In this document: positions 28,966 through 44,483 of the stretch, piece by piece | How the letters are laid out: the number at the start of each line of letters is the position of its first letter | Numbering within the stretch: position 1 is the first letter of the stretch | From: a phage | DNA: 64,000 bases | Direction: 5' to 3' (one strand) | Sequence record: NC_100372.1 | Position numbers and translations under genes: made by a program | The notes under the pieces: model-generated | What the model was told of the DNA's origin: nothing | Database searches by the model: none | What the model saw: the letters and a program-made list of their open reading frames with translations, nothing else

Positions 28966-29042
28966 TGGTCTCCACGGAGTGATTCGAACACTCGACCTCC
29001 TGATCCCAAATCAGGCGCTCTACCAAGCTGAGCTACGCGGAG
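28966..29042 (-). tRNA. tRNA-Pro (anticodon TGG), CCA encoded
   Basis: Manual fold: acceptor CTCCGCG/CGTGGAG (one G-T), D arm GCTC/GAGC, anticodon stem CCTGA/TCAGG with loop TTTGGGA, T arm GAGTG-TTCGAAT-CACTC, 3' ACCA. Confidence 0.75.
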
Positions 29043-29053
29043 TATTTATTATT

Positions 29054-29128
29054 TGGTGGCCCTGGGTGGAATTGAACCACCGTCTGGCGATTATGAGTCG
29101 CTTGCTTGAACCTTCCAGCTACAGGGCC
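29054..29128 (-). tRNA. tRNA-Met (anticodon CAT; initiator, elongator or Ile2-type undetermined), CCA encoded
   Basis: Manual fold: acceptor GGCCCTG/CAGGGCC, anticodon loop CTCATAA, T loop TTCAATT, 3' ACCA. Confidence 0.7.
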
Positions 29129-29129
29129 A

Positions 29130-29205
29130 TGGTGCTGATGGCAGGACTTGAACCTGCAACCTATTGATTACAAATCAATTGCACTGCCAATTGTGCTACA
29201 TCAGC
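29130..29205 (-). tRNA. tRNA-Thr (anticodon TGT), CCA encoded
   Basis: Manual fold: acceptor GCTGATG/CATCAGC, anticodon stem ATTGA/TCAAT with loop TTTGTAA, T arm GCAGG-TTCAAGT-CCTGC; 1 nt after tRNA-Met. Confidence 0.75.
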
Positions 29206-29211
29206 AAAAGG

Positions 29212-29308
29212 TGCTAGGTGATGGAATCGAACCACCTATGTATTCAACGACTACCTCGTCTATTTTCAGGATTAAAAATCCTCGCCCTTGCCAAAGGGCT
29301 TACCTAGC
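29212..29308 (-). ncRNA. atypical 97-nt tRNA-like element (possible Lys-UUU-type anticodon loop; not a canonical fold)
   Basis: Perfect 7-bp acceptor GCTAGGT/ACCTAGC, D arm GCCC-TTTGGCAA-GGGC, T arm GGTGG-TTCGATT-CCATC, but the central region is two short hairpins (AGGATTTTTAATCCT and GACGAGGTAGTCGTT), about 31 nt between anticodon-like hairpin and T stem; A at position 8; 3' end ACCT not CCA. Confidence 0.4.
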
Positions 29309-29406
29309 GCAATATGTTGACCATGTGGCTAGTCGGCGATGACGACTGTAACATTTGATAATCCGGTTCTGCTTCCGGCTTTCGCTTAATTACAAGGTCA
29401 ACAATG

Positions 29407-29497
29407 TGGCGGAGAGTAATGGAATCGAACCATCATCGAGTCATCCTCAACGGGACGGTTTTCAAGACCGCTTGAGCACCATTGCTCCCTACCCTCC
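29407..29497 (-). tRNA. tRNA-Ser (anticodon TGA), type II with long variable arm, CCA encoded
   Basis: Manual fold: acceptor GGAGGGT/ACTCTCC (one G-T), anticodon stem GCGGT/ACCGT with loop CTTGAAA, variable arm about 17 nt, T arm GATGG-TTCGATT-CCATT, 3' GCCA. Confidence 0.7.
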
Positions 29498-29611
29498 TTT
29501 ATAAATTACACTGATAATGACACTGATTTTCGAGCAGTTAGTGACTAGTATAAACGACGATAAATATCAATGTCATTATCTGTATGATTTATGCATTTAA
29601 AAATATAAATT

Positions 29612-29698
29612 TGGTGGGGAGTGGTGGAGTCGAACCACCCGAGTCGCAATGACAATAGATTTACAGTCTACACCGCTACCTCTACGGGATAACTCCCC
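29612..29698 (-). tRNA. tRNA-Tyr (anticodon GTA), long variable arm, CCA encoded
   Basis: Manual fold: acceptor GGGGAGT/ACTCCCC, anticodon stem GTAGA/TCTAT with loop CTGTAAA, T arm GGTGG-TTCGACT-CCACC, 3' ACCA. Confidence 0.7.
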
Positions 29699-29702
29699 AA
29701 TT

Positions 29703-29777
29703 TGGCACCCCGTACTGGACTCGAACCAGTGTCAACGGCTTAGAAGGCCGCTGCTTTATCCACTAAGCTAACAGGGC
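29703..29777 (-). tRNA. tRNA-Arg (anticodon TCT), CCA encoded
   Basis: Manual fold: acceptor GCCCTGT/ACGGGGT (two G-T), D arm GCTT/AAGC, anticodon stem GCGGC/GCCGT with loop CTTCTAA, T arm ACTGG-TTCGAGT-CCAGT, 3' GCCA. Confidence 0.7.
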
Positions 29778-40689: not shown

Positions 40690-41821
40690 AGAATATCCGC
40701 TTATTGAGTCCATAGATTGTCTAGCTGATCTTCTTGAACCTGACGCTATAGTTTATTATGACTTCGATCAGGTTGCATACCAAGCTGCAGCAAGCTGTGA
40801 AAAAAGGACAATTGAGGTAACACATAAAGCCTCCGGACGTAAGAAGGTGTTTAAAACACGAACAGAGTTTTGGGGGAGGCAGAAGAACGCAGTTGGCGGC
40901 TGGTTAAAGGCTGAGAACACCAACCGTGAAGCTGCATGTAAAAAAGCTGGCAAGGAGTTTATTCCGTGGACACGAGAAGATTTCGATGTCTTGGATATCC
41001 AAACCCCTGATCCTGTAGAGAACTGCTTGCACACAATTAAGTGTAAAGCTAATGCAGTCCTTAACTATCTCGGTATTCCTGAAGATCGGTGCGTAGGGGT
41101 GCTTGGAGGAACAGGCAATTTCAGACTAGATCTTCCCATGCCGGAACGATATAAAGCCAACCGTAACAATACTCTTCGACCACTGTTGCTTGAAGATGCA
41201 AGACAGTATCTACAAAAGCAATATAACGCTCAAGTGATCAACGGTATTGAAGCTGACGACTGGTTAGCTATCCAGCAATTTGAAGGTTGGAACCACTACC
41301 AGAAAACAGGAAAGTTCAACAAGTTTATTATCTCTATAGATAAGGACCAGCGAACACTTCCTGGGCTTGTATTCGATCCGATGAGGAACGATAAAGGTGA
41401 TTTTGTAAGAGAGACACCTATGCTCATTGATAACGGTATGGGTAACATATTCATGAAACCAAACGGCGATGTTGGTGGGTATGGAATGTTGTTCTTCGGT
41501 TATCAAATGCTGTGTGGTGACTCGGCTGACAATATTAAGCCTTACCAAGGGCTTATTGGTAAAGGAAAGTTTGGAGATGCATCTGCATTCTCCTTACTGT
41601 CTCAGTGCAGCACACCGAAAGAGATGTGGTTAGCAATTATTGATCAGTATAAAAAATGGTTTCCGAAAGGTGCCGTTAAGTATACTGATTTCAATGGTAT
41701 CGACCGTAGGATTTCCGTAGGCCAGTGGATGAGTATAATTTTTGACTGTTTGTATATGAAGCGAACATTCAATGATCAAACAAAACTTGTTAACGTTCTT
41801 AGAAATGTTGGAGCAATTTGA
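40682..41821 (+). CDS. 5'-3' exonuclease / flap endonuclease (T4 RNase H, T5 D15 family-like)
   Basis: 379 aa; motifs GIEADDW, ISIDKDQRTL, CGDSADNIKPYQGLIG (helix-3-turn-helix); TTG start preceded by AGGAGGG. Confidence 0.6.
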   Translation: MSREYPLIESIDCLADLLEPDAIVYYDFDQVAYQAAASCEKRTIEVTHKASGRKKVFKTRTEFWGRQKNAVGGWLKAENTNREAACKKAGKEFIPWTREDFDVLDIQTPDPVENCLHTIKCKANAVLNYLGIPEDRCVGVLGGTGNFRLDLPMPERYKANRNNTLRPLLLEDARQYLQKQYNAQVINGIEADDWLAIQQFEGWNHYQKTGKFNKFIISIDKDQRTLPGLVFDPMRNDKGDFVRETPMLIDNGMGNIFMKPNGDVGGYGMLFFGYQMLCGDSADNIKPYQGLIGKGKFGDASAFSLLSQCSTPKEMWLAIIDQYKKWFPKGAVKYTDFNGIDRRISVGQWMSIIFDCLYMKRTFNDQTKLVNVLRNVGAI

Positions 41822-42144
41822 TGACTAAAAATTCTGTAGATAATGCAATTATGGAAGCTGTTTTTGAGGATGATCATACAACAGGGACCCTTAAAACAAA
41901 AAATACATTTATTGTTGCTACAGGTATGTGGCGGTTGTATGAAGATGACACTATTGCATACATCCTGTATACTGATGATTACGCAGATGATCGTGTATGG
42001 TCTGCTGTTTTAAAAGAAGATTGCGAGCTGATTGAGGGCGAGCGGTTATGCATGTTTACCAGCGTGGAAACAGACGTTAAGCTTTGCTCTCTTGTGCTAT
42101 TCAAAGACAAAGCTTATTCTCCAGATGAAGAGGAAACAGCATGA
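41818..42144 (+). CDS. hypothetical protein
   Basis: 108-aa ORF, overlapping starts/stops with neighbours. Confidence 0.35.
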   Translation: MMTKNSVDNAIMEAVFEDDHTTGTLKTKNTFIVATGMWRLYEDDTIAYILYTDDYADDRVWSAVLKEDCELIEGERLCMFTSVETDVKLCSLVLFKDKAYSPDEEETA

Positions 42145-42770
42145 GAGAAAGACTGCTGTCTATAGACCAGTCTCTTACCCACACAGCCTGTGTTGTATGG
42201 GACGATGGTAAGCCTGTTCATAAGATTGTGTTACGCACACAAAGCTCATCTGCAAAAGAGAAGAAACCAGGGACGGTTTCTTTTGCAACAGCTGCTGAGC
42301 GTATTGACTGGATCTGCAAACAGGTTAGATATTATATCCACACGCACGGAGTCGATACTGTGGTTATGGAAGGGCTTTCCTTTGGATCGCGAGGTGATGC
42401 CACACGTGAGCTGGCTGGGTTGTTTTACGGTCTTGAAGTTATGCTTTGGGATGCTTTAGCAGATTGTGAAAATGACGGCCTGTTTAAGGTTCACACAGTG
42501 ACACCAACAACTGCCAAAAAGTTTGCTCGTAGTCATCTTCCTGAAGAACTTGCTTTTGAGGAGAAGAAAAAGCTTGACAAAAGGACAGGTAAAGAGCATA
42601 CTGTGAAGAAACCTGTTACGATGGATAAAAAGTTGATGGTTAAGGCCTGCGAAGTATCTGAACCCGGGTTCCTGGATGGGATCAACTTGGTACAAGGTAA
42701 GGCCGATCTCGCAGATGCTTATTGGATAGGCAGGGCGCATCTGGAGGGATTATCGCAAAGCGTAAAATAA
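42141..42770 (+). CDS. putative RuvC-like Holliday junction resolvase
   Basis: 209 aa; N-terminal LSIDQSLTHTACVVWD (catalytic Asp context), VVMEGLSFGSRG (Glu), C-terminal ADLADAYWIG. Confidence 0.45.
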   Translation: MRERLLSIDQSLTHTACVVWDDGKPVHKIVLRTQSSSAKEKKPGTVSFATAAERIDWICKQVRYYIHTHGVDTVVMEGLSFGSRGDATRELAGLFYGLEVMLWDALADCENDGLFKVHTVTPTTAKKFARSHLPEELAFEEKKKLDKRTGKEHTVKKPVTMDKKLMVKACEVSEPGFLDGINLVQGKADLADAYWIGRAHLEGLSQSVK

Positions 42771-43327
42771 GAAAGAAAGCTGTCAAAGCCCCCGTTCATA
42801 GCGGGTGGCTAAAAGATTCTAAGGACATAGCTAACTTTCGGAAAGAATTGTCAGAAGAGCAGGATGGTCTTGATCCGATCTTGTGCGAACCACTTCGTAA
42901 GCCTTGTTTAGATCATGATCATCTGACTGGTCGTTGCAGGGGTGTTTTGTCCCAATGCACTAATACCTTTGAGGGGTATGTGCTTAAATACTGGATGAAA
43001 TACTGTAACGAGTATACAGATTGCAGTTTATCAGAGGCGTTACGCCGGATGGCTGACTATCTGGAGAAAGACTACAGCGACTTCCCGCTCCACAAAAACT
43101 ACAGAGATGATATGACAAAGTTCTTGAGGAGATGCTCTAAAGCTACGATTATTGCACGTGCAGAATCAGATCTCGGTCTTGTCATTAATTCAGAGTATAC
43201 CAAGCATGAGGCTATTGAGGCCTACATGCAGGAGTTTATAAAGAAAACTGAGGAGAGAGATTTCTATGGGGACGAAAAAGGTATTCAATCCTTGCGATTC
43301 AGTTCTGATCAGGATGAAATACCGTAA
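42722..43327 (+). CDS. putative endonuclease VII-like protein (start uncertain)
   Basis: Motif CLDHDHLTGRCRGVLSQCTNTFEG resembles T4 endonuclease VII zinc/HDH core; ORF begins with TTG and overlaps upstream gene by 49 nt. Confidence 0.5.
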   Translation: MDRQGASGGIIAKRKIRKKAVKAPVHSGWLKDSKDIANFRKELSEEQDGLDPILCEPLRKPCLDHDHLTGRCRGVLSQCTNTFEGYVLKYWMKYCNEYTDCSLSEALRRMADYLEKDYSDFPLHKNYRDDMTKFLRRCSKATIIARAESDLGLVINSEYTKHEAIEAYMQEFIKKTEERDFYGDEKGIQSLRFSSDQDEIP

Positions 43328-43499
43328 CTGGAAAGGTGTTGTTGCAGATCGCTGCGTTACTGAGCCTAATTTATGGTTTGGCTCTACAGAGTATCATAAA
43401 GAAGAGCAGTGGTTGATGCATGCATTTGACGTAGATAAGGGCGAATACCGTGACTTCGCTTTAAAAGACATTCTTCAGTTTTACTAAGGAATCTTAACG

Positions 43500-44483
43500 A
43501 TGATGACAAAGTTAACTCTTGAGCAAATTTTAACACTAAAGCAACAGGGATACACTAATAGACAAATTGCTCGTGAATTTTTAGGGCGTGAGTCGCGTGA
43601 GAGCTGGATCCGACTACAGCTTAAACGTGCACAAGAGAATATGTCAGAGATTGTAGGAGAGGCAACGGAGCGCTTCCTTGAAGAACACAAAGGCGCTAAA
43701 GTTTGGGTGTATGATACAGAGACATCCCCAACAAACGGCTGGTTCTTTGGGCACTATAAGACCAACATTCAAACCTGCGGTATTGAAATTATGCCTTATA
43801 TGCTAACTTTCGCAGGTAAATGGTTAGACAGCCCTAGTGTGGTCGACTGTGCTCTTCCTGATTACAAAATGTGGGGCGAGGATATCCACAACGATCTTGA
43901 ACTGATTCAAGATTTGTGGTATTATCTGGATAAATGTGATGTTGCAGTAGCGCACAACTCTGGTTTTGACTGTGGATGGGCCAACCAACGATTTGCATTT
44001 CACGGTTTACCACCAACAAGTCCATACAAAGAGGTTGACACCCTCAAGATGATTAAAAAGGCATTCCGTTTGAATGCAAACACGTTAGAGTATGCATGTA
44101 AATACTTCCAACTGGCCCGACAGAAGCTGATTGACCACACATTTGAAATGTGGATCAAGTGTGTTCATGGTGATCTTGAGGCGTTTAAACAGATGCGGGA
44201 GTATAATGTTGGGGACATCTTGTCTCTTGAAGGCCTGTATTTGCTGGCGCGTCCGTTTGCTAAGCAGCACCCTAACATGTCGTTGTACTACCAAGATGAG
44301 GAGTCAAAAGTTCGTTGCCCACGTTGTGGTGGAGAACACCTTCACGAGGAAGAAGCTTTGGCGTATACTCAGCTGAGTGCATTTAAAACATACCGCTGCG
44401 AAGGTTGTGGATCTGTTGTTCGTGATCGTAACAACATCCGTACTAGGGAAGAGATGAAAAACACCCTTATTCAGATAATCTAA
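43500..44483 (+). CDS. DEDDy-type 3'-5' exonuclease-like protein with N-terminal HTH and C-terminal zinc ribbon
   Basis: 327 aa; HTH-like LTLKQQGYTNRQIAREF; exo motifs VYDTETS (Exo I), AHNSGFD (Exo II), YNVGDILSLEGLY (Exo III YxxxD); C-terminal CPRCGG...CEGCGS. Confidence 0.5.
   Translation: MMTKLTLEQILTLKQQGYTNRQIAREFLGRESRESWIRLQLKRAQENMSEIVGEATERFLEEHKGAKVWVYDTETSPTNGWFFGHYKTNIQTCGIEIMPYMLTFAGKWLDSPSVVDCALPDYKMWGEDIHNDLELIQDLWYYLDKCDVAVAHNSGFDCGWANQRFAFHGLPPTSPYKEVDTLKMIKKAFRLNANTLEYACKYFQLARQKLIDHTFEMWIKCVHGDLEAFKQMREYNVGDILSLEGLYLLARPFAKQHPNMSLYYQDEESKVRCPRCGGEHLHEEEALAYTQLSAFKTYRCEGCGSVVRDRNNIRTREEMKNTLIQII

Follow-up and report, generated by a model that had tools for sequence, protein, structure and literature searches.

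Where does translation of a gene begin when the start codons that its reading frame offers do not fit its relatives? This question is raised by two overlapping genes in a 64,000-nucleotide (nt) stretch of phage DNA (sequence record NC_100372.1; 'the window' below means this whole stretch, and all features lie on its + strand unless stated otherwise). The first, open reading frame 1 (ORF1, 42141-42770), encodes a RuvC-like nuclease of 209 amino acids (aa) from an ATG that overlaps the stop codon of the preceding gene as ATGA. The second, ORF2, lies in the -1 frame relative to ORF1, is open from 42701, ends at 43327 and encodes a protein resembling endonuclease VII (EndoVII) of phage T4. A sequence-only reading of the window, made from its letters and translations, had placed the two genes at 42141-42770 and 42722-43327 (201 aa from a TTG), overlapping by 49 nt, and had remarked that the second has no conventional start and no ATG until far downstream. 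Both reading frames do exist as described, and the first in-frame ATG, at 42995, lies 3′ of the sequence encoding the catalytic core. The canonical candidates in the frame are TTG 42722, which is the first, followed by TTG 42848, TTG 42881, TTG 42947, GTG 42980 and the ATG just mentioned. We argue from comparison of related loci that the gene probably initiates at a near-cognate AUC (42752-42754) inside the end of the RuvC-like gene, probably coupled to translation of the latter, and that its product would be a weakly expressed protein of 191 aa (42752-43327, the first 19 nt overlapping ORF1).

A conserved codon at the junction of the two genes

The case for this codon is its conservation, together with the ATG or GTG that matches it in relatives. 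Comparison covered 22 loci in which a RuvC-like gene lies directly upstream of the EndoVII gene, from Vequintavirus, Mydovirus, Seunavirus and six unclassified contigs. Every one of them has GGAGG or GGGGG and, 4 nt further on (6 nt in contig L027), ATC or ATA, hereafter AUH: all ten Vequintavirus loci and nine loci of more distant relatives have ATC, and contigs L026, L034 and L035 have ATA. The Shine-Dalgarno sequence of the window is GGAGGG at 42743-42748, contained within Glu-Gly codons of ORF1. The codon preceding AUH varies widely (ATT, GTT, TTT, TAT, GAT, AGT, GCT, CCT, TTC, ATA, GTA or AAA), and AUH itself is followed in the 22 loci by (A/R/V/T)-(K/R/G/F/V)-(K/R) and then by a tail rich in Lys and Arg. 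The position of the ORF1 stop varies too, from 0 to 16 nt from the AUH codon across relatives, the TAA of the window (42768-42770) beginning 16 nt after the first base of AUC. In some loci AUH overlaps the stop itself, as TAATC in L025 and L027, as TAATA in L026 and as ATAG in L034 and L035, and L027 has an in-frame TAA two codons 5′ of its ATC.

Relatives with canonical starts point to the same codon. In contig L097 the genes follow in the same order, the EndoVII gene again lies in the -1 frame and the overlap is 22 nt. An ATG stands at exactly this position, aaggtcttttt-ATG GCA AAA AGA AAC of L097 corresponding to ggagggatt-ATC GCA AAG CGT AAA of the window. In a sister clade with another gene inserted between the two nucleases, GGAGGG (GGAGA in some loci) is followed after 5-6 nt by GTG or ATG and then by the basic tail. 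EndoVII homologues that start with ATG begin MAKRNK, MARTSK or MAKKP, and the window reads I-A-K-R. The strongest start codon, the ATG of L097, is paired with the weakest Shine-Dalgarno sequence, and the AUH codons with GGAGG or GGGGG. An exact 30-mer scan of IMG/VR for more Vequintavirus junctions yielded one contig only. Another Ile codon, the ATA at 42767 that overlaps the ORF1 stop as ATAA, was also considered as a start and rejected, the equivalent codon being GTA in most lineages.

The start proposed in the sequence-only reading, TTG 42722-42724, has in its favor that no canonical start precedes it in the open ORF2 frame, that the frame from it is open in seven of the ten Vequintavirus loci examined, and that most 201-aa database models use it. 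It is not preceded by any Shine-Dalgarno sequence. A GGC to GGT change, silent in ORF1, puts an in-frame TAG after it, at the position matching 42731-42733, in EduardKellenberger and NHEP1 (L002 and L003), phages 99.2-99.4% identical to the window, and in IMG/VR contig L011 (93% protein identity). In these three the ORF2 frame opens six codons before ATC, and no ATG, GTG or TTG occurs in that interval. The TTG is likewise without equivalent in Mydovirus, Seunavirus and L024-L027, and in BIS47, PVP-SE1, Mydo and L017-L027 no ATG, GTG or TTG was found anywhere in the overlap. The additional residues that it would give the protein, DRQGASGGI, are merely the conserved C-terminus of ORF1 read out of frame. 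Stop codons in phages 99% identical rule this TTG out as a conserved start, and as the start of the gene in the window we consider it unlikely.

The opposite possibility, that translation begins further downstream, at TTG 42848-42850 (159 aa) or ATG 42995-42997 (110 aa), finds some encouragement in a GGAAAG that precedes this TTG and in the fact that gene callers pick both codons. The DNA upstream speaks against it. Substitutions were counted pairwise, in the ORF2 frame, from the ORF1 stop up to the next ATG, GTG or TTG. The window compared with L011 (codons 8-31) gave eight synonymous changes and one non-synonymous, L025 compared with L026 gave seven and one, and L016 compared with L021 gave eight and one; the other two frames of the same three pairs had 0-2 synonymous and 8-10 non-synonymous changes. 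Purifying selection in the ORF2 frame therefore extends over the upstream 24-32 codons, and TTG 42848 is excluded because the DNA before it evolves as coding sequence. It also falls at residue 33, within a helix predicted at residues 23-36 (pLDDT 94-97), and starting there would cut this helix and remove the basic tail, which belongs to the part of the protein (residues 2-32, AKRKIRKKAVKAPVHSGWLK...) that the 159-aa model lacks. A start at ATG 42995 would go further and delete D54, H55, H57 and N71 of the catalytic core. Initiation at either codon is, in our opinion, extremely improbable.

Closer at hand is AUU 42749, the codon immediately upstream of AUC, which is near-cognate as well and could serve as the start alone or along with its neighbor. 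AUU is a known non-canonical start codon in E. coli, used by infC and pcnB, and a 192-aa NCBI model on E. coli assemblies begins here, with MIAKRK. The codon is nonetheless GTT in rV5_ev146, HeinrichReichert and bov10K2, TTT in L011 and variable elsewhere, and it stands only 1 nt after GGAGG, so that we regard initiation here, or at both codons, as quite unlikely.

The sequence-only reading had also raised the possibility of a frameshift or fusion product. A programmed -1 frameshift near the end of ORF1 would join the RuvC-like and EndoVII-like proteins, and three features are in line with it: ORF2 does sit in the -1 frame of ORF1, the internal GGAGGG before the ORF1 stop resembles the dnaX stimulator, and the A AAA that precedes TAA in the window could permit slippage in the P-site. 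No X XXY YYZ heptamer is conserved across the 22 junctions, however, and BIS47, L025, L026 and L027 are without a slippery sequence altogether; in L027, moreover, the open overlap is only 4 nt long. The EndoVII gene of L097 has its own ATG. In the sister clade the gene upstream is another one, and EndoVII, in the +1 frame relative to it, begins with a GTG or ATG of its own. No fusion was found among 70 homologues (22 RuvC-like proteins of 157-230 aa and 48 EndoVII proteins of 129-201 aa), and the local RNA fold is not significant (z-score -1.3) and has no Rfam match. The missing slippery heptamer, the short overlap of L027 and the absence of fused homologues make a frameshift product very unlikely.

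Several points weigh against initiation at AUC, and should be set beside the evidence in its favor. GGAGG-N4-ATH is not a rare combination, with four copies in the window against 5.1 expected, so that the argument rests on its position and conservation, not on its frequency. Only Ile codons occur at the conserved position, as would also be the case if it encoded an internal residue of a longer product, and a spacing of 4 nt is close to the lower functional limit. The loci are phylogenetically non-independent, though neighboring synonymous positions are well randomized. One Seunavirus protein model starts five codons later (MKSPASK), and start positions may thus differ between lineages. The variable AUU and the 192-aa model that begins with it also count here, as does the TTG 42722 frame, which is open in the window itself, so that minor initiation there may occur in this phage. 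Finally, our search of the literature found no proteomic, N-terminal or ribosome-profiling data for these phages. Weighing all this, we still consider AUC 42752 the probable start.

If translation does begin there, the initiator tRNA would start at 42752-42754, 4 nt after a strong GGAGG located in the final codons of the RuvC-like gene, and the product would be a protein of 191 residues, fMet-AKRKIRKK..., combining the basic tail with the full T4-type EndoVII fold. Measured in E. coli reporters, the initiation rate of AUC, AUA and AUU is about 1-2% of that of AUG (range 0.02-3%), and mass spectrometry showed the product to carry an N-terminal Met (bioRxiv 10.1101/063800). Output of EndoVII, a potentially toxic nuclease that cuts branched DNA, would accordingly be low, because AUC initiates in such reporters at only about 1-3% of the rate of AUG. 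Since the gene would start within the final 19 nt of ORF1, with the RuvC stop 16 nt downstream of AUC, its translation is probably coupled to ribosomes translating or terminating the RuvC-like gene.

This arrangement has known counterparts. As with the AUU codons of infC and pcnB, and with class IIA start codons, a Shine-Dalgarno sequence accompanies an AUH codon from which inefficient initiation is to be expected. The codon of ORF2 differs from theirs in being AUC (AUA in some lineages), in being contained in the 3′-terminal part of the gene before it, 0-16 nt upstream of the stop, and in being conserved across several phage genera; no autoregulatory logic linked to IF3 is evident. With respect to ATGA and TAATG junctions, at which translation of adjacent genes is coupled and which likewise bring a stop and the following start to within a few nucleotides, the TAATC of L025 and L027, the TAATA of L026 and the ATAG of L034 and L035 are literal analogues. 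The start of ORF2 is, unlike at those junctions, a near-cognate Ile codon, and that of the window is placed 16 nt upstream of the stop, so that a terminating ribosome would have to re-engage upstream.

It is tempting to go one step further and to regard the conserved Shine-Dalgarno-AUH start as a selected device, which would keep translation of a toxic nuclease that cuts branched DNA down to about 1% of the normal level and tie EndoVII synthesis to ribosomes that complete the RuvC-like gene, and perhaps to the availability of IF3 late in infection. The two resolvases would in this case be produced at a constant and highly unequal ratio and act on different substrates, with recombination junctions left to the RuvC-like enzyme and debranching before packaging to EndoVII and its basic tail. 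This last step is speculative, and we put it forward tentatively, as an idea that may well turn out to be wrong.

The two nucleases

Profile searches bear out the family assignments made in the sequence-only reading, neither protein failing to match resolvase families. ORF2, which had been called EndoVII-like, passes the Pfam model PF02945 (Endonuclease_7) with 31.7 bits against a cut-off of 23.6 and matches phrog_423, 'endonuclease VII', with E=3.8e-37. A phmmer search matches residues 51-164 of the query to residues 37-154 of the T4 EndoVII chain (1E7D/1EN7/2QNC, E=3.7e-5). Its AlphaFold model has a pLDDT of 88, and the sole Foldseek matches in the PDB at E<=0.001 are again T4 EndoVII structures (1E7L, 1EN7 and 2QNF, with TMt 0.67-0.74 over 152-157 columns). 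The predicted fold and the sequence matches taken together indicate that ORF2 is a full-length homologue of T4 EndoVII (gp49; 1EN7, 1E7L, 2QNC, 2QNF), the C-terminal helical domain included.

The catalytic residues of the T4 enzyme are D40, H41, H43, N62 and E65, and its HLDHDH...N...E aligns with the core of ORF2, C52-L-D54-H55-D-H57...N71...E74, a beta-beta-alpha-metal motif encoded at 42905-42973 (CLDHDH at 42905-42922); the two proteins thus share the motif LDHDH...N...E. In an alignment of ORF2 with its relatives (A4), L53, D54, H55, H57, R63, G64, V65, N71 and G75 are invariant and E74 is conserved in at least 90% of the sequences. The zinc site is another matter. T4 EndoVII binds zinc with four cysteines, C23, C26, C58 and C61, and this site appears not to be conserved in ORF2, whose cysteines (C45, C52, C62 and C69) do not line up with the T4 CxxC pairs, differ in their presence from one relative to the next and include none that is invariant.

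Both ends of the protein differ from T4 as well. At the N-terminus ORF2 and its relatives carry some 14-35 residues, many of them Lys or Arg, for which T4 EndoVII has no equivalent; in ORF2 this tail reads AKRKIRKKAVKAP (42755-42793, 7 of 13 residues basic) and is modelled without secondary structure, at a pLDDT of 68-84, and a basic tail of this kind is present in every Vequintavirinae EndoVII homologue. At the C-terminus the Vequintavirus proteins have, unlike T4, a disordered extension of 20 residues. In ORF2 these residues (172-191, 43266-43327) have pLDDT<50, are specific to Vequintavirus and are wholly encoded within the 62-nt overlap with the next gene. They give the impression of a read-on extension, not of a functional domain. 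The FV3 gene model and one protein model on an E. coli assembly stop short of them. The proposed near-cognate start within the upstream gene is one more difference from T4 gene 49, which reportedly makes two nested proteins.

ORF1 had likewise been taken for a RuvC-like protein, and this is now upheld by its match to phrog_159, 'RuvC-like Holliday junction resolvase' (E=1e-38), by its similarity to RuvC structures and by its conserved acidic tetrad. The protein itself has no Pfam match at E<=1, RuvC (PF02075) included; PF02075 is matched by 4 of 20 aligned homologues (best E=1.8e-6). A search of 5.8 billion proteins returned 22 homologues of 157-230 aa, the shortest of which carry Pfam RuvC. 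The AlphaFold model (pLDDT 91.7) has RuvC structures as all of its 12 best Foldseek matches in the PDB (E 9e-8 to 6e-5, TMt 0.67-0.77), the best being RuvC of Thermus thermophilus, Deinococcus radiodurans, Pseudomonas aeruginosa and E. coli (TMt 0.69-0.77), and RuvC of Lactococcus phage 67 is likewise a significant match.

The tetrad consists of D9 (42165-42167), E77 (42369-42371), D189 (42705-42707) and D192 (42714-42716). E77, D189 and D192 are invariant and D9 is conserved in at least 90% of an alignment of 20 sequences (A3), the DxxD spacing is that of RuvC, and we infer that the four residues correspond to D7, E66, D138 and D141 of E. coli RuvC. Going by family and predicted fold, ORF1 is a RuvC-fold nuclease. 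With the bacterial and Lactococcus phage bIL67 RuvC structures (PDB 1HJR, 4LD0, 4EP4, 7XHJ, 6LW3 and 4KTW) it shares the RNase H-like RuvC fold (TMt 0.69-0.77) and the D...E...DxxD tetrad, at a sequence identity of 13-18%. It is about 50 residues longer than these structures owing to an insertion at about residues 132-160 (42534-42620), some 30 residues rich in Lys and Glu and predicted to form a helix and a beta-hairpin (strands 139-145 and 152-158), which is missing from the short homologues that carry the Pfam RuvC domain.

Gene order and neighboring features

Positions 41800-43500 of the window are 100% identical to Escherichia phage vB_EcoM-ECP26 (MK883717; Vequintavirus, rV5-like), and about 120 phage records match this region at 90-100% identity. 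The genes here are closely spaced or overlapping and encode, in order, a FEN-like exonuclease, a 108-aa protein, the RuvC-like and EndoVII-like nucleases, a 73-aa protein and a DnaQ-like exonuclease. The same order occurs in Mydovirus, Seunavirus and several uncultured relatives, and the nuclease pair is syntenic across the Vequintavirinae. That both nucleases are kept throughout the subfamily argues against their simple redundancy, which the sequence-only reading had offered as one way to understand the pair.

In Certrevirus, Septuagintavirus-like and SSBI34-like phages the two nucleases are separated by one extra gene of phrog_12410, to which no function was assigned (807-1460 in L008, 837-1475 in L009 and 924-1454 in L010). 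In the C-terminal region of its product, an (L/M)-E-G motif encodes the GGAGGG that serves as the Shine-Dalgarno sequence for EndoVII, and is followed by GTG or ATG in the +1 frame. The 73-aa gene downstream of the pair (43266-43487; phrog_3715, with weak WYL-like similarity) overlaps the last 62 nt of ORF2. Among the records matching the region are 20 labelled 'Campylobacter phage' (MG065635-MG065690, hits H14, H15, H28-H30, H33, H39, H45 and H46; host given as Campylobacter jejuni), which are mostly unannotated and have 94-96% DNA identity here to Vequintavirus of E. coli; these host labels look doubtful.

A phage initiator tRNA able to read AUC was considered too, and rejected: the one tRNA of the window with a CAU anticodon has a G1:C72 pair and no initiator features. 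ARAGORN names this gene (29054-29128, - strand) tRNA-Met(CAU). The pair G1:C72 is a normal one, and the anticodon stem-loop, GCGACTCATAATCGC, resembles, we presume, that of E. coli tRNA-Ile2 (ileX). The gene probably encodes a tRNA-Ile that reads AUA once modified with lysidine, and neither an initiator nor an elongator tRNA-Met. Within a cluster of seven tRNAs (28966-29777) there is also a tRNA-like gene of 99 nt (29210-29308, - strand), which ARAGORN reports as tRNA-??? with a four-base anticodon (atcc).

Annotation and implications

The databases annotate the start of ORF2 in at least five incompatible ways, as proteins of 201, 192, 159, 110 and 92 aa, and some GenBank records leave the gene out. 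ECP26, Murica and HeinrichReichert have the 201-aa form from TTG 42722; NCBI protein records on E. coli assemblies have 192 aa from ATT 42749; EduardKellenberger, ECP2303 and SYGMH1 have 159 aa from TTG 42848; NHEP1 and bov10K2 have 110 or 92 aa from a downstream ATG (42995 in NHEP1); and in rV5_ev146 the EndoVII gene is not annotated. In this last record (LR699804.1) the name 'EndoVII packaging and recombination endonuclease' sits on the RuvC-like gene (L092, 220-849). A rare AUC start would explain why the annotations differ so much. The idea of such a start is already present in annotation, as the protein records of PVP-SE1 (ADP02521) and GAP31 begin at the equivalent ATC, and our search of the literature on rV5 and PVP-SE1, endonuclease VII and AUC starts found no discussion of the start of ORF2 or of the nuclease pair. 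A search of NCBIfam gave nothing useful.

Truncated gene models have had consequences of their own. Of the 201-aa ORF2 model, phrog_29095 ('endonuclease', 92 positions) covers residues 110-201 and no others. It appears not to be a separate family but the C-terminal half of the phrog_423 EndoVII, built from models truncated at a downstream ATG (42995 in NHEP1 and similar records, 92-110 aa).

What is new here is a conserved AUC or AUA codon that overlaps the end of a RuvC-like gene and probably serves as a near-cognate start, by a mechanism that is itself of a known kind. A core DNA-processing gene of widely used therapeutic and biocontrol coliphages carries inconsistent models, and initiation at AUC would yield one consistent gene model across the RuvC-adjacent Vequintavirinae lineages examined. 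A naturally conserved AUC or AUA initiation codon would be uncommon in enterobacterial systems, and lineages with AUC, AUA, GTG and ATG at one and the same codon would offer a natural comparison of start-codon strength with that of the Shine-Dalgarno sequence. As for the nucleases themselves, the retention of both a RuvC-type and an EndoVII-type enzyme throughout the subfamily argues that the two are non-redundant, and there may be a division of labor between them.

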